64,000 nucleotides of DNA from Candidatus Wildermuthbacteria bacterium (GTDB taxonomy: Bacteria; Patescibacteriota; Minisyncoccia; Minisyncoccales; UBA10102), in assembly GCA_016186115.1 (NCBI GenBank), contig JACPMK010000002.1, forward strand, positions 136,983 to 200,982, given 5' to 3'. The translations under genes were made by a program, and so were the position numbers. This document shows positions 20,294 through 62,144 of this stretch, in pieces. Numbering within the stretch: position 1 is the stretch's first letter; each line of letters opens with the position of its first letter. The notes beneath the pieces are model-generated. The model did no database searches, was not told the origin of the DNA, and was given only the letters and a program-made list of their open reading frames with translations.

Positions 20294-20407
20294 TTATCCC
20301 TGTCTTTGTTTATGCTTAGGATTTTTACAAACAATATAGATTCTTCCCCTTCTCTTCACAACCTTGCAATCTTTGCACATTTTTTTTACGGATGATCGTA
20401 TCTTCAT
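20294..20407 (-). CDS. rpmJ: 50S ribosomal protein L36
   Basis: Manual translation gives [37 protein letters not shown] (37 aa). It is too short for the ORF track. Confidence 0.9.
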
Positions 20408-20409
20408 AT

Positions 20410-20634
20410 CTATTTTTCGCGATATACAATTCTTCCCTTTGTTTTATCGTAAGGGCTCACTTCCACCGTAACCCTGTCGCCGGGGAGAACCCGAATTCTG
20501 TGCACTACAAGTTTACCCGATAAATACGCGAGGATTTCTGTGCCGTCATCAAGTGTAACGCGAAATTGTAAATTTGGCAAGGTCTCTACTACCTGTCCTG
20601 ACAGACGGCTTACTTTTTTGTTCGGGTCCATCAT
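20410..20634 (-). CDS. infA: translation initiation factor IF-1
   Basis: 74-aa ORF with an S1-like IF-1 sequence. Confidence 0.9.
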
Positions 20635-20678
20635 TCAAAAATCACAATGATTCATAGTACCAGAAAAGAGAGCGCTCG

Positions 20679-21962
20679 TCAATCTTTCTTCTGCAGGGGC
20701 TCGATATTGAGCTTAATTTCGATTGTAAGGAGGTCTTTTGAGGCACGCCGCTCCCAAAAAGGCCAAAACGAAAGATCGCTCTGGGCAATATGAGGGTATT
20801 GTTCAAGAAGGGTGCTCATCTGAAGGGCATTAAGCCCCTGCACCTGCGATCGAATTTCTTCGGTGTCAAGCTCCCAATATCCTTGAACCGAACCATTAAC
20901 CCGAACCGTAAGTAGTTTTTGCAGCACATCAAAATTCTCCACGCTTGCAGAATATTGCATCGTATCTTTTTTCAGATACTCCCCTTTTTCAAGCTGATCA
21001 TTCAATGCTTTTTCTACCAAACTCTCCAACTCTCTTTTTGGAAAGAACATTGTCGTAACCTGGACTTTTGCGTTGGACGTAAAATGTTCGAACTCCTCCC
21101 CTTCTTTTGCAACAGAGGAAAAAGAAACAAATTCTGCCGAGAGTGCTTCGGGAACCAGCATAAATCCATCAGTAAGAGCACCTCGGAATTTCGCAAGGGC
21201 TTTTTCTTTTAGATCCAAAAGAAGAGTTTGCTTTGCGCGTTCTATATCGTCAGCCGAAACAATGCTTATACTCTCGACAGCTCCTCCTTTCATTGATTCT
21301 GCTGATTTTCCATAGATTGAAGTATACATTGCAGTGCCCACGAGACCGGGAAGAGAAAAATTGGAGGGGCCAATATTGTATGCCTCACCCGGCTCTTGCG
21401 CCTCCACAGGAACATCAACTGCCCCCGCGATCAATTTTCCTCCTTCCCGACGGGCACCCGGAATTTTTATTTTTTCAATAGCACGGAACAGTTTTCCATT
21501 CTCCGAAACAAATCTGGTTTGGGCAATAAACGTCTGCGAAGAGGTGGAGTAGCCATTATATACCCGTATGACTCCTCGTGCCTCTTGTTCTTTTTTCTTT
21601 GTTCCGGTGCTGGAAAACACCCCATCGCCTTCTATGGTTTCCGAACGCATAACACCAGAAGTAAGCATAGGAAGCGCAGTATCCTTGAGGTTCGACCCCT
21701 CTGCAATTTGAATAAGCTCATCTGAATGAAGCTCTCGCATTTGTGGCCAAAGCACAATCGATGTTCTCGCAAAAAAGAAATGCAATACAACAAATGCCAT
21801 CCCCCCCATAAGGAGTATCCCGCAGAAAATGAATACAACAAATACTCGTGATTTTTTCTCTTGTCGTTTTGGTTTCGAGTTCTCACGAGAAGAAGTGCTT
21901 TGGGAATGACGTTTGAGCCGTGGAGGTTGGATATCGCGAATCTTCCGTTTTGCTTGAGGCAT
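20679..21962 (-). CDS. hypothetical bitopic membrane protein
   Basis: 427-aa ORF. It has a basic N-terminus (RKIRDIQPPRLKR), one transmembrane helix (VFVVFIFCGILLMGGMAFVVL) and a large extracytoplasmic region. I recognise no family. Confidence 0.55.
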   Translation of the reverse strand: MPQAKRKIRDIQPPRLKRHSQSTSSRENSKPKRQEKKSRVFVVFIFCGILLMGGMAFVVLHFFFARTSIVLWPQMRELHSDELIQIAEGSNLKDTALPMLTSGVMRSETIEGDGVFSSTGTKKKEQEARGVIRVYNGYSTSSQTFIAQTRFVSENGKLFRAIEKIKIPGARREGGKLIAGAVDVPVEAQEPGEAYNIGPSNFSLPGLVGTAMYTSIYGKSAESMKGGAVESISIVSADDIERAKQTLLLDLKEKALAKFRGALTDGFMLVPEALSAEFVSFSSVAKEGEEFEHFTSNAKVQVTTMFFPKRELESLVEKALNDQLEKGEYLKKDTMQYSASVENFDVLQKLLTVRVNGSVQGYWELDTEEIRSQVQGLNALQMSTLLEQYPHIAQSDLSFWPFWERRASKDLLTIEIKLNIEPLQKKD

Positions 21963-21964
21963 AA

Positions 21965-23080
21965 TTACATCAAAAACGCTACTGGGGTATATGCTGGATC
22001 CTTTGCCTGATGAAATTGCATACGAGCCATTAGAGATGCGGGAGAAAGAAGAGAAACCTGAAGATTGCCGTCGAGCGGAAGATCGCGAAACCCATCTTCC
22101 TCTGCCACCTCTTCTATTTCACGAAGATTACTGGTACCGCCCATCACATACAAATGCGATGGAAGTACTTGATCAAGCAACAAGAGTTTTTCTTTGCACG
22201 CGGCAAGCCATGCCCGCGCCTCTCTCTCAAGTACTTCATGAGTTCTCTTTCGCATTTCTTCTGAAAATTCCATCCGGCTATAGCGTTCCTTAAAATCCTG
22301 CGCCATTGTTTTTTGCAATCCCAGGTGATGCTCAAGAGCATAGGTAAAATTATCTCCCCCAAAAGGAATTACTTTGACCGATTGTAAAAGATTGTCTTTG
22401 ATAATCGCAACTTGAGTTGCTTTCTCTCCGATATCAATATACACTCCCTCCTTATTGCTATCCGCTGCGAACAATTCCAATCCCTCTGCCCAGTGGATAA
22501 TTCTTACTTCTTTGATGCCATGTTTCTTTTGCAGATTCTCGCGTATCATACGATACCCAACCGGAAGACAAACTCCCAGCAGACGCATTGTGACCGAGTT
22601 TCCTCGTAATCCCCGCAGCGAGGCAGCGCGATACCCATCAACTGATATCTTTAAAAGCTTAAGCTTCACGATAGCGAGATCCTTAGCAGGAATCTGATAT
22701 GCTTGAGAAAAATAATACTCTATTTCCTTGCGGGAGAAACGAATAATCTGCTCTTCTAGTTCTTTTTCTTCTTTTACGCCAATGGTGAGTTTCGGATTCT
22801 TGCGCGAAACGGTATATTCAAAAACCTCGGCGCGAAAAAGCAAAGGCGGGAGAGCAAAATGCAGGGAACGAATGTAAGAAAACTCTTTCCTGACGCTCTG
22901 GATAATCCCATGCATTTCTCTTTCCCAAGAAATTTCATCGACTTGTTTTTCTGCTGCGATCAGAACATCGCGTTCCCCTTTTTGGTTCGGACGCATCACA
23001 AGATACTTGATCGAATGATCACCAATATCAAGCAAAAGAATGTTTGCGGGCTTGGCTTTAAAAAATGAAAAAAAACTCAT
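21965..23080 (-). CDS. FtsA/PilM-like actin-fold ATPase
   Basis: 371-aa ORF with LLLDIGDHSIKYLV, VYIDIGEKATQVAII, FGGDNFTYAL and YVMGGTSNL, which resemble phosphate/adenosine motifs. Confidence 0.6.
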   Translation of the reverse strand: MSFFSFFKAKPANILLLDIGDHSIKYLVMRPNQKGERDVLIAAEKQVDEISWEREMHGIIQSVRKEFSYIRSLHFALPPLLFRAEVFEYTVSRKNPKLTIGVKEEKELEEQIIRFSRKEIEYYFSQAYQIPAKDLAIVKLKLLKISVDGYRAASLRGLRGNSVTMRLLGVCLPVGYRMIRENLQKKHGIKEVRIIHWAEGLELFAADSNKEGVYIDIGEKATQVAIIKDNLLQSVKVIPFGGDNFTYALEHHLGLQKTMAQDFKERYSRMEFSEEMRKRTHEVLEREARAWLAACKEKLLLLDQVLPSHLYVMGGTSNLREIEEVAEEDGFRDLPLDGNLQVSLLSPASLMARMQFHQAKDPAYTPVAFLM

Positions 23081-23086
23081 GTGATG

Positions 23087-24826
23087 TTATTCAATAATTG
23101 CCCGGATTCTCCGGATGCCTCGCGCTATCGCCTCTTCCTTAACAATTTTCAGTTTGCCAACTTCAGAAGTTCGCTGTACATGCGGCCCTCCGCAAAGCTC
23201 CTGCGAAAATACTCTCCCTGTCTCGGAATCGAATGCGGTATATACCTTTACTATAGACGGATATTTCTCTTTCGCAAAATGGAGAGCATTTGTTTTCAGC
23301 GCTTCTTCATAGGGCATCTCTTTGTATTCTACTTTCAGATCATCCTGAATTGCCCTGTTCGCGACCTGCTCTACCGCTGCGATTTCTTCCGAAGTAAGCT
23401 TGCGGTCAAAAGTAAAATCAAATCGCGTGCGCTCTGCGGTGATATCAGAACCCGCCTGACGAACCGACTCTCCGAGCACCTTGCGCAATGCTGCCTGCAA
23501 AAGGTGTGTTGCGGTATGCAACCTGGTGACGATTTGAATTTCTCTTTCGTCAGCAGCTTTGAGTTCTCCCGTATCCAACAATAAACCATGCCCTCCAAAT
23601 TTTTTCTCTTGCCCGGCCCGCGAAATTTCCTGATGTTTTGTAAATTCTTTATCGAAGTCGTCTCGCGCTAAACTCTTGGCCTTTTCTCCTCCCAAATCTT
23701 TAATCACTTCATAGGGCAGGCCGTAGCTTTCATATAACCTAAAAGCTGATGCCGCATCTATACTCTGTAATTTTTCGAGCTCATGTTGGCCAGCAACTAA
23801 AGTTTTTTCAAATTGAGAAAGTTCATCTTTGAAAATAAGAAAAGTTTTCTCGCTATTCAATTCATGATATACAGAGCCATACCGATCAATTACTTTGCCC
23901 AATATGGTGAAATATTCTTGCGAATAATTTCTTGCCCGGATAATAAAACGGCGCATGAGGCGGCGCAAAATATATCCTGCATCTTTATTGGAGGGCAAGA
24001 CCCCATCGCAAATTAAAAAAACAATAGCCCGCGCATGGTCAACGATAATTCTTTTTTCGCGATTGCCAAGATGAGTTGGCAGCAAAGCGATAAGAGGGTC
24101 GAATAAATCCGTTTGAAAAATATTTTCTTTTTCTTGCGATACCGTTGCCAATCGTTCCAAGCCCATGCCTGTATCCACGCCCGGCGTTTTCAATGGCTCA
24201 AGGGTTTTATCTGGATGGCAATAATACTGATTGAACACAATATTCCATATCTCAATGCCACCAGCATAAATTTCTGTTGTGGGGCCGCACGGCCCCTCGT
24301 TACCCGTCGGACCCCAAAAATTATCTTCTCGTCCCATCAACTTGAGATTCTGCTTTTCCATTGAAAACCCGTATGAATTCCAAATAGCAATAGATTCTTC
24401 GTCACGCGGGACTTCTGCGTCTCCCCCAAATACTGTGACATACTCAATGGGTACGTTGATTTCTCTAAGAAAATCATAAGCATATTGAATTGCCTTTTCC
24501 TTGAAATATCCTCCAAAAGAGAAATTGCCAAGCATTTCAAAAAAGGTAAGATGCCGTTCATCCCCTACTTCGTCGATATCTGAAGTGCGGAAACTTTTTT
24601 GAATCGATGCTGCGTTCCTGCTCCCCAACGGCCTTCCGCCAAGAGTTGGATGCGGAGAATGAAACGGGTCAGCCGCTCCCGTGTAGTAAGGTTTAAACTG
24701 TTGCATTCCGGCCGTGGTAAGCAATACCGATGGATCATCCGGAATCAAAGAAGACGAGGGCACAATCGTATGCTCTCGTTTTTTGAAAAACTCCAAAAAT
24801 CGTTCGCGCAATTCCCGTGACTCCAT
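23087..24826 (-). CDS. alaS: alanine--tRNA ligase lacking the C-Ala domain
   Basis: I placed the start at ATG 24826 (MESRELRERFLEFFKKREH). The catalytic core is followed by editing-domain motifs (HTATHLL, CGGPHV). The protein ends right after the editing domain at 579 aa. Confidence 0.85.
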   Translation of the reverse strand: MESRELRERFLEFFKKREHTIVPSSSLIPDDPSVLLTTAGMQQFKPYYTGAADPFHSPHPTLGGRPLGSRNAASIQKSFRTSDIDEVGDERHLTFFEMLGNFSFGGYFKEKAIQYAYDFLREINVPIEYVTVFGGDAEVPRDEESIAIWNSYGFSMEKQNLKLMGREDNFWGPTGNEGPCGPTTEIYAGGIEIWNIVFNQYYCHPDKTLEPLKTPGVDTGMGLERLATVSQEKENIFQTDLFDPLIALLPTHLGNREKRIIVDHARAIVFLICDGVLPSNKDAGYILRRLMRRFIIRARNYSQEYFTILGKVIDRYGSVYHELNSEKTFLIFKDELSQFEKTLVAGQHELEKLQSIDAASAFRLYESYGLPYEVIKDLGGEKAKSLARDDFDKEFTKHQEISRAGQEKKFGGHGLLLDTGELKAADEREIQIVTRLHTATHLLQAALRKVLGESVRQAGSDITAERTRFDFTFDRKLTSEEIAAVEQVANRAIQDDLKVEYKEMPYEEALKTNALHFAKEKYPSIVKVYTAFDSETGRVFSQELCGGPHVQRTSEVGKLKIVKEEAIARGIRRIRAIIE

Positions 24827-24858
24827 AGTGCTTTCTATTATATCTAATCTTTTCTTAA

Positions 24859-24906
24859 AAGAAAACAAAAGAGCTTAAAATCCACGATCGTAGCTTTTAA
24901 GCTCTT
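24859..24906 (-). terminator. rho-independent terminator after mnmA
   Basis: On the minus strand, the stem AAGAGCTTAAAA/TTTTAAGCTCTT (12 bp) has an ACGATCGT-containing loop and is followed by TTGTTTTCTTTT. Confidence 0.7.
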
Positions 24907-24990
24907 GTCGCCTCCCTCATCTGAAAACCTCCTCCTTTAGATAAATTCTAGCAATAACTCTACAAAACTTATCTGCTATGTCAAATTAAG

Positions 24991-26118
24991 TTAAACAGTG
25001 GCAAGAATCGAAGGCACAGAAGCAATAGCGGGCTCGGCAGATTTTTCTTGGATGATGCCGGCGGCGACAAGAGCACCGTCTTGATAGAACGCGGCAATTT
25101 GGCCAGGGGTTACCGCTCTCTGGGCGACGTCAAAAATTATTTTCCACGTTGCACCATCAACTTTTTCCAGAGTTGCTTTTGTCAATGGCTGGCGATAACG
25201 GACGCGCGCCTCCCCTTCGATTGCATGTGCATTTAGAGCAACCAGCCAATTCATATTGTTTATAAAAATTTCTTTTGTATCCAAATCCCGCTCATCTTTT
25301 GTGACAATAAGAGTATTGGTAACAATATCTTTGCCCAATACATAGTAAGGCCCTCCTGATAAACCGATGCCCTCGCGCTGGCCAATTGTGTAATACATTA
25401 TTCCGTCGTGTTCGCCGAGTATTTTTCCAGAACTATCAATAATATTGCCTTTTCGCGGCTTGATATATTGTTTCAAAAACTCGCTGAAGTCGATTTTGCC
25501 AACAAAACAAAGCCCTTGGCTTGATTTTCTCTGGGCATTTGGCAAACCAAATTTTCTGGCAAATTCACGGACTTCACGCTTGGTGTAGTCACCAATCGGA
25601 AATCGAACCCGCGACAATACCTCTCGCTTCATAAGAGAAAGAAAATATGTCTGATCCTTTTCTATATCTTCTGCAGCCAAGAGTTGTGCTTCATGCTTCA
25701 TGTTGCGCGTTTCATGGAGTAATCGGGCGTAATGGCCGGTTGCGACAAAATCAGCCCCCAGCTTCATTGCTTTCTCAAAAAATAACCCAAATTTGATTTC
25801 GCGGTTGCACACCGCATCTGGATTTGGAGTAATCCCCTTTTGGTATCCGTCGATCATATAGCCCATGACCCGCTGTCGATATTCATTGATCATATTCCAA
25901 GAGTAAAACGGAATTCCCAAATGATTCGCAGCCAAACGCGCGGATCTTTCATCGTCCACCGTGGTACATGCTTTTCCTTCTGCCCAACACTTCATATACA
26001 CCCCAACAACGTTAAATCCATCCCTCTTCAAAAGGGCTGCCGCAACCGAAGAATCCACTCCTCCGGACATGGCAACAAATACCTTTTGTCTTTTTTTATT
26101 TGTATTTTCTGTATTCAT
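24991..26118 (-). CDS. mnmA: tRNA 2-thiouridine(34) synthase
   Basis: I placed the start at ATG 26118 (MNTENTNKKRQKVFVAMSGGVDSSV, PP-loop). The longer ORF to 26268 overlaps the upstream gene. Confidence 0.9.
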   Translation of the reverse strand: MNTENTNKKRQKVFVAMSGGVDSSVAAALLKRDGFNVVGVYMKCWAEGKACTTVDDERSARLAANHLGIPFYSWNMINEYRQRVMGYMIDGYQKGITPNPDAVCNREIKFGLFFEKAMKLGADFVATGHYARLLHETRNMKHEAQLLAAEDIEKDQTYFLSLMKREVLSRVRFPIGDYTKREVREFARKFGLPNAQRKSSQGLCFVGKIDFSEFLKQYIKPRKGNIIDSSGKILGEHDGIMYYTIGQREGIGLSGGPYYVLGKDIVTNTLIVTKDERDLDTKEIFINNMNWLVALNAHAIEGEARVRYRQPLTKATLEKVDGATWKIIFDVAQRAVTPGQIAAFYQDGALVAAGIIQEKSAEPAIASVPSILATV

Positions 26119-26144
26119 AACATTCCAAATATACCACAAATTAC

Positions 26145-26180
26145 TCTCAAAATAAAGGCCGCATGCGAGCAAGCGGCCTT
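26145..26180 (-). terminator. rho-independent terminator after the YkuK-like gene
   Basis: On the minus strand, the stem AAGGCCGC/GCGGCCTT has a 10-nt loop and is followed by TATTTTGAG. Confidence 0.6.
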
Positions 26181-26206
26181 GAATGGGAATAGTTGCTTGG
26201 TAAATC

Positions 26207-26719
26207 TTAGGAATACCGGTCGGCGACGGAGGAAGCAACAAAGGACTCGGGCTTGATTTTCGCCTCAAAACCGTTTCCCCGAATAAGCCCCACCACCTCG
26301 CGGATCATATCTTTTGTAGCTCCGTTCTCCCCCACGTCAGCATGAATATATTTTAATTCGTAGGGCAAGGGTTGTTCTTCCTGTGCCATGCGTGTGGCAA
26401 AATTTTCCCGCAGCCACAATGCCAGCTCGCAGGAAAGAAGAACCTCTTCTAAAATTCTTTCGTGCCGATTATAGAATTTTCGGGGAGCTGGATAATGCAC
26501 TCTCCGCAAAAAAAATCTGCCTCCCTCGCCTTTGCGCAGAATAACAATCGCGACCGGAAAGGTGGGGTCTTCGGTTGCCGACGAATCGCACCCAACAATA
26601 ATTTCATAGGTACGTTCTGGCCTTGCCTTCATGTAGCGAATCATCTCTTCGAGCACTTCGGCCAAGGATAATGCGCCCGCAGTAATATTGTAGAATTTTC
26701 CCTGAATCAAGGGTTCCAT
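26207..26719 (-). CDS. RNase H-like YkuK/DUF458-family protein
   Basis: 170-aa ORF. The pattern IIVGCDS...FPVAIVILRKGEGGRF...IHADVG recalls DUF458. This assignment is from memory only. Confidence 0.45.
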   Translation of the reverse strand: MEPLIQGKFYNITAGALSLAEVLEEMIRYMKARPERTYEIIVGCDSSATEDPTFPVAIVILRKGEGGRFFLRRVHYPAPRKFYNRHERILEEVLLSCELALWLRENFATRMAQEEQPLPYELKYIHADVGENGATKDMIREVVGLIRGNGFEAKIKPESFVASSVADRYS

Positions 26720-26730
26720 ACCTCCTTACT

Positions 26731-27504
26731 CTATCCCAAAATCGATTCTTTGACAAGGCTCACAAACTCTTGCGCATTAAGCGATGCTGCTCCAACTAAC
26801 GCCCCATCCGCGCCTCCCTTTTCGATAAATTCCCGAATATTTTCTTTACGCACGCTGCCTCCGTAGAGAATATGAATACCTTTGGCCGATGCTTCGCCCC
26901 ATTTTCGAGCAAGAACTTCTTTCATAAAACTAATTGCCGCCTCACAGTCCTGGGGAGTTGCCGCTTGAACTCCTTTGACAGAGCTGATAGCCCATTCGGG
27001 CTCATACACAAGCACGATCTTTGAAGATTGCGTTCGCGAAATATCCGCAAGAAGAATTTGCATCTGCAGCTCAAGTTCTCTTTTCGCATTGGGCGAACCC
27101 TGCGCTTTCTCTCCAATACATACCACTGGAATAAGCCCAACATCCAATGACGCTTTGACTTTTTGGCGGATTACTTCGTATGTTTCGGATAAATAATTCT
27201 TACGTTCTGAATGCCCAATAATAACATGGGAACACCCCAGATTCTTGAGCATTGCCGGAGAAATTTCCCCGGTGAATGCTCCCTGCTTTTGCCAAAAACA
27301 ATTCTGTGCGCCAAGGAGAAAATTAAATTTTTCGGCGTGAAATATGGGTATATACACAAAAGGCGGACAAAGCACTACCTGAACATCAGAAATATTTTTG
27401 ATTCCTTGATCTACTTTCTTTGCAAGAGCAAGCGCTTCTTTGGCGCTTGGCGGATTCATTTTCCAGTTCGCGATAAGGAGCGGTTTTTTATTTTGAGTTT
27501 TCAT
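26731..27504 (-). CDS. tpiA: triose-phosphate isomerase
   Basis: 257-aa ORF with IANWKMN, IGHSERK and YEPEWAI motifs. Confidence 0.95.
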   Translation of the reverse strand: MKTQNKKPLLIANWKMNPPSAKEALALAKKVDQGIKNISDVQVVLCPPFVYIPIFHAEKFNFLLGAQNCFWQKQGAFTGEISPAMLKNLGCSHVIIGHSERKNYLSETYEVIRQKVKASLDVGLIPVVCIGEKAQGSPNAKRELELQMQILLADISRTQSSKIVLVYEPEWAISSVKGVQAATPQDCEAAISFMKEVLARKWGEASAKGIHILYGGSVRKENIREFIEKGGADGALVGAASLNAQEFVSLVKESILG

Positions 27505-28105
27505 TGTGAATTATTTTTACGTGCCTCCATATCCACCATACTCCAAGAAGCAAAAGAATGCCAATAATAAGCCAATCAAATCTGCGAAAATATATCTCTA
27601 CATTTGTCCAATTCTCCCCTGCTTTCAGGCCCAAAAAAGCAAGTAAAGCACTCCAAAAGAAAGAGCCGAGAGAGGTATAAATCAAAAATTTTCCGAGATT
27701 CATTTTTGCCATGCCTGCTGGAAACGAAATAAAAGTCCTGACAACTGGCAACAAGCGCGCGACGAAAACGGTTACAGCGCCGTATTTCCGGAACAGTCGT
27801 TCTGACAATTCAAGATCATGTCTCGTGATAAAAAGATACCTGCCATATTTTTCAAAAAAACGTCTTCCACCCCAGAAACCAAGGTAGTAAGAAAAAAGAG
27901 ATCCCAACACATTTCCCAACGCGCCAAAAAATACTACGATCCAAAAAACAAATGTACCCTTCCATGCCAAAAATCCTGAAAATGGCATGATGATTTCAGA
28001 GGGAACGGGGATATTTGCGCTTTCAAGTGCCATCAAAACTGCCACCCCAGCGTAGCCGGATACTTCTATTGTATGAATAATGAAACTGACGATCTGCTCC
28101 AACAC
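27488..28105 (-). CDS. DedA family membrane protein
   Basis: 205-aa polytopic ORF with the DedA/SNARE-associated pattern (PSEIIMPFSGFLA...FVARLLPVVRTFISFPAG). Confidence 0.8.
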   Translation of the reverse strand: MLEQIVSFIIHTIEVSGYAGVAVLMALESANIPVPSEIIMPFSGFLAWKGTFVFWIVVFFGALGNVLGSLFSYYLGFWGGRRFFEKYGRYLFITRHDLELSERLFRKYGAVTVFVARLLPVVRTFISFPAGMAKMNLGKFLIYTSLGSFFWSALLAFLGLKAGENWTNVEIYFRRFDWLIIGILLLLGVWWIWRHVKIIHNENSK

Positions 28106-28117
28106 TGTTTCGAGTGA

Positions 28118-29170
28118 TTATTGCAATCTCAAAAATTCGGCAGCTTTTTCTGGCTCTATGGTAGAAATTTCAATCCCCGTCCCAAGCTCAAATCCGGCCC
28201 ATGTTGCGGTCTTGGGCAATATCTCGAAATGCCAATGGTAGTGGTCGTACGTCCAAACATTCGTGGGTGCGGTATGAATAAAATAATTGTAGTCAGGATC
28301 TTTCAATCCCTTGGCAAGCTTTTGCATAGTTATCAGCAAAATATCTGCCAAGCATTCTTTTTGATGTTCATCGCTTTTTTCAAAATATGCCAAATGCTGA
28401 ACAGGATAGATACGAATTTCGAAGGCAACCCTTGAAGCAAAGGGGCAGAGAGAAACAAAACAGTCATTCTCGTAGATGATACGGGACTTTTCTTTCCGAT
28501 CCCACTCGAGCATAACACAATGAACACACTGTTTCTTCTTTTCAAAAAATTCATACGAATTATCCAAGCTCCGCTGAATATCGGGATCCGTAATTGCAGT
28601 TGCAATAATTTGAGAATGAGGATGAGCAATGGTGGCTCCGGCTCCTGCTCCTTTATTTTTAAAGATCGAAATATAGTGAACAAATTTTCCCTCCATCAAT
28701 TCAAGATAACATTCCTGATACATATCGACCAGCTCTTTTGTCTCTTGCTGGGAAAATTGAGGAATATCTCTTGTATGATCCTTCGTAATAATGACTTCAT
28801 GAAACCCCACACCATCCATGACCTGATACGGCCCAACTTTTCTTTCGCGAAGAGAATTACTTAGGGTAAATGCGGGATATTTGTTGGGAATCGCAACTGT
28901 AGTCCATTCCAAGGTGCTTTGATCCTCAGGAATTTTCTCCACTTTTTTCGATTTATAAAATGCTTTATTGGCCCGCTCTTGGCCAATAAGTGTTTCGAAA
29001 GGACAATTCGTAATAGAATCCTCAAGTTCGGGCCGGGTCTCTTTCCTAAAATGCTCTGGCCTTTTTGCCCGCCCAGTTGCAATAACGACCCAATCCCTCG
29101 AAACAGGGTCCAAACGAAGCTCTGAAGGAACCGGTGCGTTTGATATGGATTTCTTTCGAAAAATATTCAT
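28118..29170 (-). CDS. galT: galactose-1-phosphate uridylyltransferase family (HIT branch) protein
   Basis: 350-aa ORF with LRLDPVSRDWVVIA, NKYPAF and the active-site HPHSQI motif. Confidence 0.75.
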   Translation of the reverse strand: MNIFRKKSISNAPVPSELRLDPVSRDWVVIATGRAKRPEHFRKETRPELEDSITNCPFETLIGQERANKAFYKSKKVEKIPEDQSTLEWTTVAIPNKYPAFTLSNSLRERKVGPYQVMDGVGFHEVIITKDHTRDIPQFSQQETKELVDMYQECYLELMEGKFVHYISIFKNKGAGAGATIAHPHSQIIATAITDPDIQRSLDNSYEFFEKKKQCVHCVMLEWDRKEKSRIIYENDCFVSLCPFASRVAFEIRIYPVQHLAYFEKSDEHQKECLADILLITMQKLAKGLKDPDYNYFIHTAPTNVWTYDHYHWHFEILPKTATWAGFELGTGIEISTIEPEKAAEFLRLQ

Positions 29171-29928
29171 TCTGCTTTCAAGCGATTTTTACTATACATT
29201 CCCTTGAGTGAATTGATTCTAATCTGAAAAACCTCAAACAGCATTCGGATCATTCCCTTGAGCTTCACTTTGCTATTGGGATCATTCACCCACGTAACAG
29301 GAAACTGACCAATGCGATAGTTCAATTTTTTTGCAATCACAAGCAGTTCTACGTCAAATGCCCAACGATCAATAGTCGCCAGAGAAAAAATATCAAGCGC
29401 TGATTTTTTTGTAAATCCCTTAAAACCGCACTGGGTGTCCCATATTCCCCACATGCCGGAAAATATCTGAACAATAATATTGAAAATATCTCCGAGCCGT
29501 CTGCGCACCCATGACTGGGAAACCGCAATAAACGCACCCTCCATATCCCGCGAGCCGATTACAACGTCGTATCCCTTGGAAAATTCGGGCCACATTCTTT
29601 CAACATGATCCACTGTGGTTGCGTTATCCGCGTCCATAAAAACCCTAAACTCCCCCTGTGCCTCGAGCATCCCCTGTCTCACCACGTACCCCTTTCCCTT
29701 ATTGTCTTTATTGTTAATCACGCGAAGATTTTTAATGGTCTGCGCCATTTCACTTGCAACTGCAGCGGTTCCATCTCTGGAGCCATCGCTTACGACCAGA
29801 ATTTCATAGGCATAATCCTGCTTTTGCAAATACGCATCAACGGCTTTCAATGTCTGCGGAAGCCGTTGTTCTTCGTTATATGCCGGAATAATTACCGATA
29901 CATGCACTGCCATAATAGTTTCAACCAT
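29167..29928 (-). CDS. family 2 glycosyltransferase (polyprenyl-phosphate glycosyltransferase-like)
   Basis: 253-aa ORF with VSVIIPAYNEE, VVSDGSRDGT and FMDADN (DxD) motifs. Confidence 0.8.
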   Translation of the reverse strand: MVETIMAVHVSVIIPAYNEEQRLPQTLKAVDAYLQKQDYAYEILVVSDGSRDGTAAVASEMAQTIKNLRVINNKDNKGKGYVVRQGMLEAQGEFRVFMDADNATTVDHVERMWPEFSKGYDVVIGSRDMEGAFIAVSQSWVRRRLGDIFNIIVQIFSGMWGIWDTQCGFKGFTKKSALDIFSLATIDRWAFDVELLVIAKKLNYRIGQFPVTWVNDPNSKVKLKGMIRMLFEVFQIRINSLKGMYSKNRLKAE

Positions 29929-30004
29929 TATACCAACACTACGGTAAAATGAAAAGAGATCATACTTACGCTCTAATGTGATAGCGTCTTGGTATAAATC
30001 TATT

Positions 30005-30040
30005 ATCTTCTCATTTCGGCGGTCGCAGTTATAAGAAGAT
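30005..30040. repeat. 36-bp imperfect palindrome, copy C (degenerate)
   Basis: ATCTTCTCATTTCGGCGGTCGCAGTTATAAGAAGAT. By hand alignment it matches the reverse complement of copy A at about 28 of 36 positions. Confidence 0.6.
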
Positions 30041-30048
30041 AGATACGG

Positions 30049-30618
30049 CTAAAGCAAGTTGAAATAAGCTCTTAGCTTTACATCATCTTTAATCACCTTT
30101 GCCTTAATGACGTTGACGAAGGGATAAATTTGAAATAACTCTACGATAAATTCTATTTCTTTTTCGCAGGGCCAAGGACATACCCACACGCTTTTTTGTA
30201 ATTGATAAAAATTCCAACGCTTCATTCTTTCACGGAGAGCTTCTCTTGCAATTTTCTTTTTATCTGGAATATCAAAAATAACTACCCTCCAAATTCCATC
30301 CCATCGACTGGGCTTGGCAACAAAAAGCGTCTGAAGTTGAATTTCCCTGACCTTCCGTTTCCCCTTCTCACTAAGCTCTACAGTAAATTTTCCATCATCC
30401 TGTTCCTTCAAAATAATCAGACGCGATTTCTTGAGACGATAAAATGCACTTGCTAATTTCTTGCGGCCCTCCTTTTTTCTGTAAAAATTCTCCCCCTTCA
30501 CAAAATGCCTAAGAACACTTGCGGAGAAATTGGGCACCATGAAAGCAACAGTAAGAACTCCTGCTGCAGCAAGCGAAAGAAGAACTGTACGAGTTATGCC
30601 GCTAGGTATTTTGGGCAT
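30049..30618 (-). CDS. PaaX-family / Cas2-fold regulator-like protein with N-terminal hydrophobic segment
   Basis: 189-aa ORF. A winged-helix-like middle region (FYRLKKSRLIILKEQDDGKFTVELSEKGK) is followed by WDGIWRVVIFDIPDKKKIAREALRERMKRWNFYQLQKSVWVCP, which resembles the PaaX C-terminal / Cas2-like ferredoxin-fold pattern. Confidence 0.5.
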   Translation of the reverse strand: MPKIPSGITRTVLLSLAAAGVLTVAFMVPNFSASVLRHFVKGENFYRKKEGRKKLASAFYRLKKSRLIILKEQDDGKFTVELSEKGKRKVREIQLQTLFVAKPSRWDGIWRVVIFDIPDKKKIAREALRERMKRWNFYQLQKSVWVCPWPCEKEIEFIVELFQIYPFVNVIKAKVIKDDVKLRAYFNLL

Positions 30619-30647
30619 TTCACTCTAAATCTTAGTTTATCCATCCT

Positions 30648-30683
30648 ATCTCCTTATAACTGCGATCGCAAGAATAAAGAGAT
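30648..30683. repeat. 36-bp imperfect palindrome, copy A
   Basis: ATCTCCTTATAACTGCGATCGCAAGAATAAAGAGAT. The core TGCGATCGCA is a perfect 10-bp palindrome, and the outer arms ATCTCCTTAT/ATAAAGAGAT are near-complementary. Confidence 0.75.
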
Positions 30684-30747
30684 AGCTAACGGAGGCATGA
30701 ACGAATAGAAGCATGAATATAAGATACAAAATCATGACATGCAAAAT

Positions 30748-31497
30748 CTAGGTACGAGTCAATACTTCGGGCCCTTTGTTTGTAATGGCAATAGTGTCTT
30801 CAAAATGGCAGGAAAGAGAATGGTCCCGGGTAACATAGCCAAAGCCATCAGATGATTGTTTGATGCGCCAATCCCCCGCCGTGATCATGGGCTCAATGCA
30901 AATCACCATGCCTTTTTTGAGTTTTGCGCCTGAATTTTCTTTACCGTAATTCAAAACCATCGGATCCTCATGAAGCGCTCTGCCAATACCATGTCCGCAA
31001 AGTTCCCGAACCACATTGTATCCTTGTTTTTCCACAAATTTCTGGATGGTATTCCCAATATTCCCAACCGTATTTCCCGGCTGCGCCTGCTGGATGCCGA
31101 GGTCAAGCGCTTTTTTTGTAGTATTTATAAAACGAACATGCGCCGGAGAAATCTTTCCTGCAGCTACGGTACGAGCCATATCGAGATAAAATCCCTTCCA
31201 GATTAATCCAATATCGAGAGTAACCATATCGCCTTCTTGAATAATTCGTTTTTCCGATGGCACGGCATGAACAATTTCATCGTTGAGACATACGCAAAGA
31301 GACGCAGGAAACCCGTCATACCCTTTGAATGCTGGTTTTGCGCCCGAATGTAAAATCAGAGCTTCTGCAGCTCTGTCGAGGGATTTGGTGCTCATGCCGG
31401 GTTGCACCATGGTAAGCAACGCATCAAGAATTTTACTCAAAATCTCGCCACCTGTACGCATTACTTCTATTTCTTGAGAACTCTTTAACGAAATCAT
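30748..31497 (-). CDS. map: type I methionine aminopeptidase
   Basis: 249-aa ORF with the MetAP pita-bread pattern (...HGIGRALHEDP...EPM...). Confidence 0.95.
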   Translation of the reverse strand: MISLKSSQEIEVMRTGGEILSKILDALLTMVQPGMSTKSLDRAAEALILHSGAKPAFKGYDGFPASLCVCLNDEIVHAVPSEKRIIQEGDMVTLDIGLIWKGFYLDMARTVAAGKISPAHVRFINTTKKALDLGIQQAQPGNTVGNIGNTIQKFVEKQGYNVVRELCGHGIGRALHEDPMVLNYGKENSGAKLKKGMVICIEPMITAGDWRIKQSSDGFGYVTRDHSLSCHFEDTIAITNKGPEVLTRT

Positions 31498-32072
31498 GGT
31501 AAAAATCTCTTCAAATGCCGGCTCATTTCTTTATGAACTTCTGCTACTGATTGTTCCCCATTTACTTCGAATAATACATTCTTTTTCCGATAGTAATCGA
31601 GCACTGGTTCTACTTCCGTACGAAACCATTGCAAACGTGTTGCAATATCGCCATTCGTATCATCAAAACGCGCCCGGCGAAGAAGCCGTTTTCTTGATTC
31701 TTCTTCTGAAATATGAATATAGCAGACGCGAAATCTGTCGGCCCATCCCAAAAGATCAAATAATTCTTCAAGCATATACGCCTCATAGAGTTTTCTGGGA
31801 TTGCCATCGAAAATCATGCCGACGGAATTTTTCTTATCACATAATTTGAGTAAGCGCGGCATCCAAAGAGAAAATACGAGAGGCGTAGGCGCCAACATAC
31901 CATGCTCCAAAGCGTTGCGAAGTTTTTTCCCTATCATATCGGGCTTTTTTGCTCTCTTTCGCAACAGTTGGCCGGTGCGGATAACCTCGAAACCTGTTTG
32001 GCGCTGTAAAATTTTCACTTGGGTCCCTTTGCCAGCGCCGGGCCTGCCGAGAATAGAAAGAAGAAAAACCAT
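31494..32072 (-). CDS. adenylate kinase-like NMP kinase (short-LID paralogue)
   Basis: 192-aa ORF with P-loop GRPGAGKGTQ, NMP-binding RTGQLLR and no zinc-LID. Confidence 0.7.
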   Translation of the reverse strand: MVFLLSILGRPGAGKGTQVKILQRQTGFEVIRTGQLLRKRAKKPDMIGKKLRNALEHGMLAPTPLVFSLWMPRLLKLCDKKNSVGMIFDGNPRKLYEAYMLEELFDLLGWADRFRVCYIHISEEESRKRLLRRARFDDTNGDIATRLQWFRTEVEPVLDYYRKKNVLFEVNGEQSVAEVHKEMSRHLKRFLP

Positions 32073-32077
32073 ATTCT

Positions 32078-32788
32078 TTACGCAATAAAATCATTAAGAA
32101 TTTTCGAGATATCCAAAAACACCTCTGCAACCGACTGCTCGGCTCTGACGGTATGAACTGGAATACCATTTTTCTTGAGGTAAGGGATTAAAGGAAGGGT
32201 CTGATTGCGAAATTCCTGAAAACGGACTTTCATTGCCTCAACATTGTCGTCAACCCGCTTGATAAGACGGGAACCGTCGAGTGGACATATGGTAAGACCT
32301 TCTGTCTCTGGATGGGAAAGAATGGGATGACGCATTAGTTCACACATTTTTCTCTGCGTATTTCTTCGGATTGATTCCTGTTCCTCAAGATCAAGATACA
32401 AAACAACAATGTGTTCTTTTCCAAATTTCTCAAGCAGGAATGGAAATACAAATTCAATCTGTTCAACGCTTCGCGGAAAGCCATCGAGTACAATACTTTC
32501 TCCCATCTGGTATACCTCCTGAATTTTTTTCTGCACAAGAAAAGAAACAAAAGGCGCCTCGCATAAAAATCCTTTGCGCTGGCGCTCGTCTTGCTCTGCA
32601 ATGACATATCGCTTGCCTTCGATCTCGATATATTCCCCTTCTTTGGCATTGCGAAATTTCTGCCCCAAAAGTTTGCTCATCTCAATGCGCACCAGCTGAT
32701 GCTGCTCTGCGATAAGCAATGTTTGCGTTCCTTTCCCTGCGCCGGGAGCTCCAAAAAAAATAAAAAGATATGGGCTAGAAAGTTTCAT
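32078..32788 (-). CDS. adk: adenylate kinase-like NMP kinase (long paralogue)
   Basis: 236-aa ORF with P-loop GAPGAGKGTQ, DGFPRSVEQ and a LID-like segment (RKMCELMRHP...CPLDGSRLIKRVDDN). It occupies the canonical position after secY. Confidence 0.7.
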   Translation of the reverse strand: MKLSSPYLFIFFGAPGAGKGTQTLLIAEQHQLVRIEMSKLLGQKFRNAKEGEYIEIEGKRYVIAEQDERQRKGFLCEAPFVSFLVQKKIQEVYQMGESIVLDGFPRSVEQIEFVFPFLLEKFGKEHIVVLYLDLEEQESIRRNTQRKMCELMRHPILSHPETEGLTICPLDGSRLIKRVDDNVEAMKVRFQEFRNQTLPLIPYLKKNGIPVHTVRAEQSVAEVFLDISKILNDFIA

Positions 32789-59969: not shown

Positions 59970-61040
59970 CTACTGGATCGTCTGATCGTTTGCTCCTTGG
60001 CCACTATCCGGCCCGCTCCACGATCCTAAAACAGGAGTAAGAGGAAAGCCGTACGTAGTTCCTTGAACAAACAACAAAACATGCGTACCGTCAACGAGAT
60101 CGGCATTGATGGTTCGACCGGATCCTCCGACGATATCGAGTTGGACGCGAAAGCGTCTCGTTTCCCCCTTTTGGAGGAAAATATTCCCCCATGAGGCAAA
60201 CCCATTGGAATCCCACTGCGTCACGCCAAGTGATTGCCCTCTGCTAACGTCAATCAGCTCGATGTTTTTTGCATCAGAGAGAATGGCACTTCCGGTTTTC
60301 ATAACCGAAATTTGTCCTGCGATGCCCTCCACCGATCCTACCACTAGCTTAAACGAATTGACGACCACAGCTTTATCGCCTACACGAGGTTGGGAATCCA
60401 CGACCATTCCATCTTCTGTGATCATGACCGTACCAATAGTCACTGGTGCAATAGTCATTGCCTGGCCAGCTCCTGTAAATATGGGGATAATATCCTTGCC
60501 GCTTTCAGCGTCAATGGCAGCGATAGCGCTGAATCTGACGACATAAATTCCTCGTGCGTAAGGAGCAACTGCGCCTACTGCTGCAACAGAAATAAATTTG
60601 CCTGCTGGCACTCGAATGGTCTTGATAGAAAAGATGAGTTGATCTGCTGTGTTGGTAAGCGTTTCCTGGAAATACACAGGGCTGCCTAGAGAAGTTTCGT
60701 ACGCATCTCCACGAGAACTTTCTGCCGCATTGAGATCAGCCCAAAGCCCGATAGCAAGGTCATTTGCCCGAGCACCAGCAGCTGGGGTATTGGTTACGCC
60801 CAGCATCTGAACCAAAATATCCTTGTCAGAACCGGTTGCATCAAGAACAGCAACGGCTACAAGCACATCACGCGTACCCGCTATGATATTCGAAGCAATT
60901 GGCGTACTAAGCGTTCTCACAACAAGGACTTCTCTAAGGGCAGGTATGGGATTTTTTTCGGGCGTCAATACGCCAGATTCCACTTTCTGACATCCAGCAA
61001 GTAAAATTGACATTATCAGAAAAACAAAAACCTTTCCCAC
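59970..61040 (-). CDS. secreted lipoprotein, beta-rich, unknown function
   Basis: 356-aa ORF with a GTG start, GGAGGG 3 nt upstream, and signal peptide plus lipobox (FLIMSILLAGCQ). Confidence 0.7.
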   Translation of the reverse strand: MGKVFVFLIMSILLAGCQKVESGVLTPEKNPIPALREVLVVRTLSTPIASNIIAGTRDVLVAVAVLDATGSDKDILVQMLGVTNTPAAGARANDLAIGLWADLNAAESSRGDAYETSLGSPVYFQETLTNTADQLIFSIKTIRVPAGKFISVAAVGAVAPYARGIYVVRFSAIAAIDAESGKDIIPIFTGAGQAMTIAPVTIGTVMITEDGMVVDSQPRVGDKAVVVNSFKLVVGSVEGIAGQISVMKTGSAILSDAKNIELIDVSRGQSLGVTQWDSNGFASWGNIFLQKGETRRFRVQLDIVGGSGRTINADLVDGTHVLLFVQGTTYGFPLTPVLGSWSGPDSGQGANDQTIQ

Positions 61041-61070: not shown

Positions 61071-61099
61071 ATTATAGAACAGCTTAGCATCAATGTCAA
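61071..61099 (-). promoter_or_regulatory. consensus sigma70 promoter of the lipoprotein gene
   Basis: Minus strand reads TTGACA, exactly 17 nt, TATAAT. Both hexamers are perfect consensus. Confidence 0.7.
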
Positions 61100-61124
61100 A
61101 TTATCCGCAATGGTTTGATCCCCG

Positions 61125-61160
61125 ATCTCCTTAAAACTGCGATCGCAAGAATAAGAAGAT
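61125..61160. repeat. 36-bp imperfect palindrome, copy B
   Basis: ATCTCCTTAAAACTGCGATCGCAAGAATAAGAAGAT. It is identical to copy A at 33 of 36 positions and lies about 45 bp upstream of the -35 box of the lipoprotein promoter. Confidence 0.75.
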
Positions 61161-61199
61161 CGATAAGAGGTTGCTTCCGCGGGTTTATTTTTGGGACTA

Positions 61200-62144
61200 C
61201 TACGGCTGCAAGATATCTTCCGTTCGGCCGTTAATAGAGATAACTACATTCTGTACCGTAGAAAATTGTTTCAGTGTTTGAGTGATTTGCGCGCGGATCG
61301 CTGCCACGCGGCAGGATCCCCCAACCTGAAATTGCAACTGTTCGTCAAAATCAACTCTCGCCACACCATTCGCAATATTCAATTGCTGGATCTTGATATT
61401 GGAATTAAGAGAACTAAAAAATCCCTGCTCTTGTTCTTTATTGGTAGTTCCCTTGAGCAATTCTTCCAGCGCTGCTCTTGCCGTTGCTTGCGTTTTTGGA
61501 ATCTGCCGATTCACGGAAAAAACCTTGTTGCATGAAAACTCCGGATCCATCTGGCTGTTATTAAAGTACGCCTGTACTGTTATCATTTCTTGCGAAGACA
61601 CCTCTCCAAATACAACCGGCACTCGCAATTCATCTGCCTGCTCGGGCAGACCCGAAGGATTATCTTTTTCCAGAATCAGCGTCCCCTTTTTGCCGGCTGG
61701 CTTGTCAAACTCAATATGCGCCTGAAATGGCACGAATTCTGTTGTCATCCACTCGCCTTGTGCCTGTGCTATTCCTGTAACAAGCGTATTTCCCCGCTCA
61801 TCAAGGAGTTTTACCGGAAAAGATGCTTCAAAAAACCAGTTTCCTCGTGCTTGGCCCGTAATCAAAAGCGGACTGCGGATTTCTTGATTAGGCCGGGGAT
61901 TGGTAATGCGGATAAGGTCTTGCTTCTCTAACTCATTGCCAATATCCTGTGTGAATGTCTTTCCATCTGGGATCGTACATTTCGCAGGATAACTTTCTTG
62001 CACCGGGTAACCCGCAGCCACACACTCGTCAAAATTTGTGATATGTACTTCCTGCGGGCCCTGCCCCTGATTCGCAAACCAAAACATCCCTCCTGCCGCA
62101 GCGAGTACAACCACGAGAATTATAATAAGATATATGGGTTTCAT
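61200..62144 (-). CDS. membrane-anchored GerMN-domain protein with Ig-like middle domain
   Basis: 314-aa ORF with an N-terminal transmembrane helix. The C-terminal region (...TARAALEELLKG...FSSLNSNIKIQQLNIANGVARVDF...ITQTLKQFSTVQNV) fits the GerMN pattern. Confidence 0.6.
   Translation of the reverse strand: MKPIYLIIILVVVLAAAGGMFWFANQGQGPQEVHITNFDECVAAGYPVQESYPAKCTIPDGKTFTQDIGNELEKQDLIRITNPRPNQEIRSPLLITGQARGNWFFEASFPVKLLDERGNTLVTGIAQAQGEWMTTEFVPFQAHIEFDKPAGKKGTLILEKDNPSGLPEQADELRVPVVFGEVSSQEMITVQAYFNNSQMDPEFSCNKVFSVNRQIPKTQATARAALEELLKGTTNKEQEQGFFSSLNSNIKIQQLNIANGVARVDFDEQLQFQVGGSCRVAAIRAQITQTLKQFSTVQNVVISINGRTEDILQP

Follow-up and report, generated by a model that had tools for sequence, protein, structure and literature searches.

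The closest described counterpart of the locus studied here is PaaX of Escherichia coli, a winged helix-turn-helix repressor that carries a dimerisation motif, shuts its own Px promoter by occlusion, and binds a 39-bp split palindrome, TGATTC-N27-GAATCA (PMC9493321). Here, we describe a 64-kb stretch of DNA from an ultra-small groundwater bacterium, Candidatus Wildermuthbacteria (hereafter called the window), in which a gene encoding a 189-aa PaaX-like protein is bracketed by two copies of an imperfect palindrome (copy A upstream and copy C downstream), while a third copy (B) is located in front of a lipoprotein gene (Table 1). As far as the sequence can tell, the arrangement is most economically read as a winged-helix repressor that controls its own gene through a palindromic operator, in an unusual bilateral, cassette-like architecture. 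No description of such a bilateral palindrome-gene arrangement was found in full-text searches of the literature. That the protein recognises the palindromes flanking its own gene appears likely. For the fuller proposal, in which the truncated PaaX-like protein has copies A, B, and C as its cognate sites and represses its own promoter, we put the probability at about one half.

The protein shares with PaaX of E. coli and Pseudomonas the Cas2-fold domain PaaX_M (PF20803), which was matched with 77.5 bits (cut-off 24, E = 8.7e-22). Structure models were built with AlphaFold2 (30 and 110 sequences). The ferredoxin-like C-terminal domain was predicted with confidence (predicted local distance difference test score, pLDDT, of about 90) and, as in PaaX, it would be preceded by a helix (residues 49-65) and a wing-like beta-hairpin (residues 68-84). 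Helix and hairpin, which belong to a segment of residues ~49-94, were modelled at a moderate pLDDT of 63-79, and the N-terminal 46 residues stayed below 50. In a Foldseek search, the top matches were PaaX (8a39, the best), Cas2 proteins, and VapD, with the alignment to 8a39 covering 146 columns at a TM-score of only 0.37. The PaaX profile TIGR02277 aligned to residues 57-183, including the putative recognition helix and wing, but with 40.8 bits against a cut-off of 264.55.

Further differences from PaaX were evident: (i) the protein is 189 aa long compared with about 300, ends ~13 residues past the Cas2-fold domain, and is without the C-terminal effector (phenylacetyl-CoA) domain; (ii) no match to PaaX_N was obtained in Pfam at E <= 1; (iii) residues ~11-29 (30532-30588) form a hydrophobic helix, with a Kyte-Doolittle 19-residue mean of 2.09 at residue 11; (iv) the protein keeps the Cas2-type aspartate of an FDIP motif, which is missing from the PaaX-like protein Rv0674; and (v) no paa genes are found nearby. 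In 81% of 110 family members the hydropathy of this N-terminal segment is above 1.6, and a strongly basic stretch follows it; the segment may be a membrane anchor or helix 1 of a winged-helix bundle. The called neighbours of the gene are map, adk, and secY on one side and GT2, galT, dedA, and tpiA on the other, and they include no paa genes, cas1, partition ATPase or par genes, or recombinase.

The likeness to Cas2 and VapD rests on these Foldseek matches and on Cas2 profile matches at residues 110-150, all of which remained under their gathering thresholds (Pfam Cas2, 20.8 vs 23.8 bits; TIGR01573, 20.4 vs 24.5 bits). In PADLOC, Cas2 matches were only weak (E >= 1e-4). A phmmer search of solved structures with the C-terminal domain recovered no Cas2 chains, and the family profile recovered only Rv0674. 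Unlike Cas2 and VapD, the Cas2-fold domain is here fused to an N-terminal part of putative DNA-binding type, and cas1 is absent from the called neighbours. Cas2 proteins carry the motifs Y-D-I and Q-x-S-V-F, where the present family has F-D-I and Q-x-S-V-W. Invariant positions of the family are D107, R111, D116 (of F-D-I-P), R125, R129, Q141, S143, C151, and E154. The initial annotation, made from the bare sequence, had proposed a PaaX/Cas2-fold product, which profile and structure searches bear out. On profile and model evidence we regard the protein as a truncated, Cas2-fold member of the PaaX family with a putative helix and wing-like beta-hairpin, which is not a PaaX orthologue and lies below the Cas2 threshold. 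An identical protein is annotated as hypothetical in a Candidatus Wildermuthbacteria genome at NCBI (HYW95_01150), and the family is large, with 731 cluster representatives (50% identity, E <= 1e-30).

The three palindromes form the top repeat family among the repeats of the window (D1/I1), and their recurrence is far above chance expectation. The 10-mer TGCGATCGCA was found twice, with 0.07 occurrences expected, and none of 100 shuffled sequences reached two; a 22-nt degenerate left-half pattern, ATCTYCTTAWAACTGCGAYCGC, matched all three copies exactly (0.00 expected). Copies A and B are identical at 33 of 36 positions, and A agrees with the reverse complement of C at 28 and with C directly at 25 of 36 positions. 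C and A are paired as I1, with 39-nt arms that are 79% complementary. On the sense (minus) strand, copy A reads CTATCTCTTTATTCTTGCGA joined to TCGCAGTTATAAGGAGATAG. Coordinates, sequences, and the A/B and A/C identities given by the initial annotation were all reproduced. It had also assigned to each copy an extent of 36 bp and a perfect 10-bp core. The palindromes are indeed present, but their dyad reaches 40 nt (CTATCT...AGATAG in A, CGATCT...AGATCG in B), and the perfect core is confined to A and B, that of C being degenerate (reverse complement TGCGACCGCC).

All three copies sit 3' of a stop codon, and the genes around them are all on the minus strand. Copy A lies 61 nt 3' of the map stop codon and 28 nt 5' of the PaaX-like start codon, copy C 7 nt 3' of the PaaX-like stop codon and ~90-110 nt 5' of the GT2 start codon, and copy B 38 nt past the stop codon of a GerMN/Gmad2 gene (61200-62144). 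As for PaaX, the putative site is long (about 39-40 bp) and dyad-symmetric with widely spaced outer half-sites; unlike the PaaX site, it has a conserved symmetric core besides the arms and occurs on both sides of the gene. There is no second PaaX-like gene in the window. Three known element types were rejected: (i) the cyanobacterial HIP1, since the 64 kb hold no more than three occurrences of GCGATCGC; (ii) a CRISPR mini-array, since the direct repeats of the window include no regularly spaced array; and (iii) classical (Rho-independent) terminators, since no T/U run follows A, B, or C and the terminator scan of the window lists none of them, in agreement with what had been noted before.

To place the window in a family context, we compared 80 homologue loci from species-representative genomes (numbered with the prefix L), all of them from Patescibacteria and several of these genomes having two or three paralogues. 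With the threshold for a shared element set above the 99th percentile of cross-locus controls, the same element was detected on the upstream and the downstream flank in 65 of 79 homologue loci (82%). Most homologue genes are bracketed by near-perfect palindromes of 30-54 bp, typically 10-60 bp before the start and 0-40 bp after the stop. Loop-less palindromes amounted to 2.5 per kb in these flanks, compared with 0.07 per kb in the remainder of these loci. The palindrome is therefore specifically tied to the PaaX-like gene family. Its arms are private, differing among genomes and among paralogues of one genome, and their type varies in step with the putative recognition helix, ATCTC arms being found with RLKKS and TGTCGTT arms with RLQKN or RLKRN. 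This match is suggestive of direct read-out, shared ancestry being also possible. In some loci, the downstream copy is accompanied by two tandem upstream palindromes separated by ~110 bp (L016, 2811-2842 and 2927-2958; L007, 2829-2864 and 2939-2978). Downstream copies are on average more perfect than upstream ones.

The symmetry of the sites runs through their centre, which nearly always has the form GC-NNNN-GC, the 4-mer being palindromic. With the inner 4-5 nt left out of the stem score, the centre was even and the inner 4-mer palindromic in 55 of 70 flank hairpins (79%) vs 13 of 87 control hairpins elsewhere; the inner 4-mers were GATC (30), CATG (7), TATA (6), ATAT (5), and others. The clade with ATCTC arms (TATCTC...GAGATA) provided 21 centre-aligned sites. 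Here, 81.9% of the cells were paired, compared with 65% after shuffling (0/500 as high) and 33-48% with slid partners. Changes on both sides were seen in 18 of 20 pairs, the two central pairs included, and three positions per side were consistently unpaired. With the arms constant, the core switches between GATC (window), ATAT (L008 and L009), TCGA (L088), and TGCA (L005), and it does so jointly in the upstream and downstream copies of one genome. A self-complementary centre is needless for an RNA loop and thus points to a twofold-symmetric protein recognising duplex DNA.

Upstream copies also appear to embed a promoter. In copy A, a sigma70-like promoter can be placed such that the -35 element ends at the dyad centre and the -10-like element begins in the final arm bases (Table 1). 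It scored 8/12, under the 9/12 required by the scanner, and hence was not listed by the scan. The same register, with TTGCnn at the centre and TAnnnT 17 nt further on, recurred in the upstream copies of L008, L009, L016, L017, L019, L028, L065, and L084. Overall, TTG at centre-6 was present in 15/62 upstream vs 4/47 downstream copies, and TAnnnT at centre+17 in 12/62 vs 2/47. A protein bound to a palindrome that contains the promoter would occlude RNA polymerase, and the geometry of the upstream copy is compatible with autorepression as described for PaaX of E. coli (PMC9493321). In many homologue loci the -10 element sits 6 nt before the ATG, which would imply leaderless mRNAs. As a side observation, the GT2 gene of the window has a predicted promoter with a TG-extended TATAAT (29955-29927) ending ~14 nt short of the start codon annotated in Logan contigs, which suggests that leaderless or very-short-leader mRNAs may be common in these genomes.

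The proposed course of events is as follows. The helix-wing segment would bind DNA and the Cas2-fold domain would mediate dimerisation, so that a dimer, or a dimer of dimers, reads the outer arms (TATCTC...GAGATA) together with the GC-NNNN-GC core. Once on copy A, the protein would keep RNA polymerase out and thereby shut down its own gene, in the way described for E. coli PaaX at Px. Copy C, at the gene's 3' end, would be a second site, may loop to copy A, and probably also acts as a transcript-end hairpin or roadblock insulating the cassette. Copy B would be an additional site of the same protein before the lipoprotein promoter.

Several observations weigh against this proposal. Neither copy B nor copy C falls within the promoter of the gene after it; the predicted GT2 promoter lies past copy C. 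Across the family, the downstream copy is located between convergent genes in 28 of 44 loci, and where imperfect, downstream copies favour the sense-strand RNA fold 36 times out of 45 (Wilcoxon 4.7e-5). A plain operator model leaves the downstream copy unexplained. Near-perfect palindromes of 40-54 bp are longer than two winged helices can read. In the protein itself, the 46 N-terminal residues are of low confidence, with no PaaX_N and a membrane-helix-like segment at residues 11-29, and the invariant FD(116)IP, R125, R129, and QxSxW resemble the catalytic signature of Cas2 and are missing from Rv0674, which hints at an enzymatic role. Finally, the palindrome-gene-palindrome unit was found inverted, absent, and relocated, which makes it somewhat cassette-like. 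The autoregulatory operator put forward in the initial annotation is accordingly only partly upheld: linkage to the gene and promoter overlap in a fixed register speak for it, but copy C is better described as a downstream element than as a promoter operator, and a conserved cassette open to inversion, loss, and relocation had not been foreseen.

Copy B is the solo copy of the window. It spans about -59 to -98 from the predicted start of the lipoprotein transcript, outside the promoter, and the previously suggested distance of 45 bp to the -35 element holds for its centre, not for its edge, which lies about 24-25 nt away. The centre of copy B has ATTCTTGCGA / TTGCGA, but no -10 element (TCGGGG). 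The product of the lipoprotein gene (59970-61040) shows a lipobox, LLAGC, in its translation. An extra binding site at this position is plausible from the sequence. Copy B is identical in all four other contigs of the strain, with no polymorphism, and the GerMN homologue loci compared for a B-like site had non-syntenic contexts, which makes the lack of such a site downstream uninformative as to its conservation. Solo copies are rare, with two in the 3-kb flanks of 60 loci (~360 kb) and one, copy B, in the window, which fits a small regulon and fits occasional relics equally well. In collections that do not contain the source genome, TCTYCTTAWAACTGCGAYCGC had no exact match among 185,579 species genomes and CTTAWAACTGCGAYCGCMRRAAT none among 241 million metagenome records.

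A second, unrelated palindrome with the same kind of architecture was noted at 24869-24906, between mnmA-like and alaS-like genes. It reads AAGAGCTTAAAATCCACGATCGTAGCTTTTAAGCTCTT, with a CGATCG centre and private arms, and is followed on the sense strand by a T-rich run, then TATAAT and the ATG of alaS. This element may serve as a terminator, or else as the solo site of another PaaX-like paralogue whose gene lies elsewhere in the genome.

Table 1. Positions of the palindromes, the PaaX-like gene, and associated promoters in the window.
Feature	Position	Strand	Description
Copy A	30646-30685 (36-nt extent: 30648-30683)		40-nt imperfect palindrome, upstream-type site
Copy C	30004-30042 (36-nt extent: 30005-30040)		Downstream-type palindrome, degenerate core
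Copy B	61123-61162 (36-nt extent: 61125-61160)		Solo copy, upstream type
PaaX-like gene	30049-30618	-	189 aa; Pfam PaaX_M at residues 104-176
Putative promoter of PaaX-like gene in copy A	30643-30671	-	-35 TTGCGA 30671-30666, 17 nt, -10-like TAGGAT 30648-30643
Predicted promoter of lipoprotein gene	61071-61099	-	TTGACA-17-TATAAT, 12/12 consensus, sigma70-type; gene 59970-61040

Foremost among the alternatives, although unlikely in our judgement, is an invertible or mobile cassette, whose protein would bind the palindromes at both ends and, at the dyad core, cleave DNA strands or exchange them, so that the cassette is flipped, excised, or moved; autoregulation would then be a by-product of binding the promoter-bearing end. 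Precedents are transposases with a promoter in the terminal repeat, and Hin with its hix sites. As in Hin/hix, a segment of ~0.7 kb encoding a putative site-specific DNA-binding-type protein has two imperfect palindromic boundary sites, and between species the gene occurs in both orientations at the same chromosomal site. As in insertion sequences with a terminal-repeat promoter, the -35 element belongs to the outer half of the end site; inversion or end-binding would thus alter expression. The palindromic central 4-mers of the flank hairpins would suit a symmetric cleavage site, the invariant Cas2-like residues are possibly catalytic, and several paralogues are present per genome.

Comparison of related loci revealed the corresponding rearrangements. 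Only L008 and L009 among the 80 homologue loci share the neighbourhood of the window. In L009, tpiA-dedA-galT-GT2 and map-adk-secY have the same order and strand as in the window, yet the PaaX-like gene runs the other way. The palindrome of L009 on the map side keeps its orientation relative to map, which puts the inversion breakpoints at or within the palindromes; they can be placed no more finely than this, as the spacers flanking the cassette are not alignable between the window and L009. The PaaX-like gene of L008/L085 is also flipped relative to map. For comparison of the map interval, 80 metagenome loci were fetched with the map protein. In these, map was followed directly by GT2 in seven loci, with no solo palindrome in the gaps, by the PaaX-like gene on the same strand in four and on the opposite strand in one, and directly by tpiA in many. 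Relocation is illustrated by L036 (2784-3614) and L037 (2804-3597), where an 830-bp palindrome-gene-palindrome module is shared between two different Patescibacteria genomes (protein identity 94%, DNA identity 83%); beyond the palindromes the similarity is lost, and the 3-kb flanks are unrelated on both sides, even by tblastx. L023 and L038, with 86% protein identity and partial synteny, have the module and a neighbouring 300-bp segment swapped (A-M-B-C vs A-B-M-C), a local rearrangement beside the palindromes.

Other observations speak against such a cassette. Pfam searches of the protein (E <= 1) returned PaaX_M and weak Cas2 only, with no HUH/Y1, DDE, or serine/tyrosine recombinase domain, and no recombinase is encoded by the called neighbours. 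No genome contains near-identical copies, the best same-genome paralogue pair being 74% identical. Target-site duplications gave no consistent signal, a slight excess of 6-7-mers being attributed to fuzzy palindrome ends. The relative orientation of the ends is not fixed, with 30 direct, 16 inverted, and 19 symmetric cases in 65 loci, in contrast to the ends of insertion sequences. Empty sites retain no solo palindrome, and the map-tpiA interval varies for other genes too, so that gain and loss may be passive. Strain contigs from four other sequencing runs are identical in sequence and show a single orientation, and no relative of the 189-aa protein was found on viral contigs. Moreover, we know of no Cas2-fold recombinase or transposase. 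More doubtful still is the strongest form of the idea, namely an autonomous invertible or mobile cassette of Patescibacteria in which a winged-helix/Cas2-fold enzyme would read the private arms, cleave strands or exchange them at the GC-NNNN-GC centre, and so act on its own flanking repeats without Cas1; it would represent a new kind of site-specific DNA-processing enzyme.

The surroundings of the gene show additional variation. The ribosomal-protein/secY-adk-map operon is split from infA-rpsM by ~10 kb of unrelated genes (about 20400-31500 in the window; 9122-20209 in L001), and this segment holds the PaaX-like gene, GT2, galT, dedA, tpiA, an RNaseH-like gene, mnmA, alaS, ftsA, and others. 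In relatives, map is followed by infA, by tpiA, by GT2-galT-dedA-tpiA, or by the PaaX-like gene. Tandem adenylate kinase paralogues (192 and 236 aa) are encoded at 31494-32788 between secY and map, and L008 and L009 appear to keep mainly one adenylate kinase.

We consider it improbable that the main role of the palindromes is that of RNA (or single-strand) hairpins at the ends of transcripts, independent of any DNA binding by the protein, either as U-tract-less or factor-dependent terminators, stabilisers, or insulators delimiting the transcripts of the cassette and its neighbours, or as RNase substrates of the Cas2-like domain. Some Cas2 and VapD proteins are described as RNases (PMC3351183). 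The position of the window copies after stop codons fits such a role, and owing to G-U pairs they fold 2.4-7 kcal/mol better on the sense strand than on the other strand (A, -19.3 vs -12.2 kcal/mol; B, -19.0 vs -12.7; C, -12.9 vs -10.5). In the family, the sense-strand bias of downstream copies and their frequent location between convergent genes point the same way, as do their G-T mismatches (36, vs 18 A-C), although a transcription-coupled C-to-T bias could mimic this excess. The CGATCG-centred hairpin with its T-run before alaS is similar. On the other hand, upstream copies have no folding bias (28 vs 31) and hold the -35 and -10 elements, so that they largely precede their own transcript, and the loop 4-mer is palindromic in 79% of the hairpins, for which RNA folding has no need. 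A T-run (>=5 T in the next 8 nt) follows only 2 of 47 downstream copies, and among these loci there are ordinary terminators in which a T-run follows a hairpin whose loop is not palindromic (L006 and L010). Paralogue-matched private arms would likewise be unnecessary for a generic terminator. An Rfam scan of the window returned only four tRNAs at the gathering threshold. As part of the autorepressor proposal, downstream copies probably double as transcript-end hairpins.

A membrane-anchored DNA tether, in which partition-like or chromosome-membrane attachment would use the palindromes as centromere-like sites autoregulated in the manner of par operons, is very improbable. The hydrophobic N-terminal helix and its basic neighbour, both widespread in the family, would suit an anchor, and the sites are few, highly symmetric, and flank the gene. 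Nevertheless, no ATPase or partition genes are among the called neighbours, the helix may instead belong to the winged-helix bundle (where the AlphaFold2 models are of low confidence), and several paralogues each with a private site are hard to square with segregation.

A selfish repeat of the repetitive extragenic palindrome (REP) or miniature inverted-repeat transposable element (MITE) type, associated with the gene only incidentally, can practically be set aside: imperfect intergenic palindromes, a copy away from the gene, and, as in systems of REPs and their transposases (RAYTs; REPtrons), a small gene flanked by its own imperfect palindromes with further copies elsewhere recall such elements, but REPs number tens to hundreds per genome, vs three copies per 64 kb and two solo copies in 60 loci here, REP loops are non-palindromic whereas the dyad here runs through the centre, RAYTs are HUH/Y1 proteins acting on single-strand hairpins and the window protein has no such domain, no exact match was found in the two collections without the source genome, and gene linkage in 82% of the loci, together with the rarity of solo copies, disfavours this alternative, which had been raised earlier.

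Patescibacteria (Candidate Phyla Radiation) have tiny genomes with few recognisable regulators, and to our knowledge almost nothing is known about their gene control. Against this background, a large family with paralogues that each have a readable site on both flanks yields a set of predicted protein-site pairs. It offers a natural system in which the co-evolution of a recognition code, consisting of arms and core, with the protein can be followed. Standing between PaaX repressors and Cas2 nucleases and retaining conserved residues of Cas2 type, the family is also relevant to the question of how DNA recognition came to employ the Cas2 fold. Should the cassette prove to be mobile or invertible, it would represent a new class of element and enzyme.

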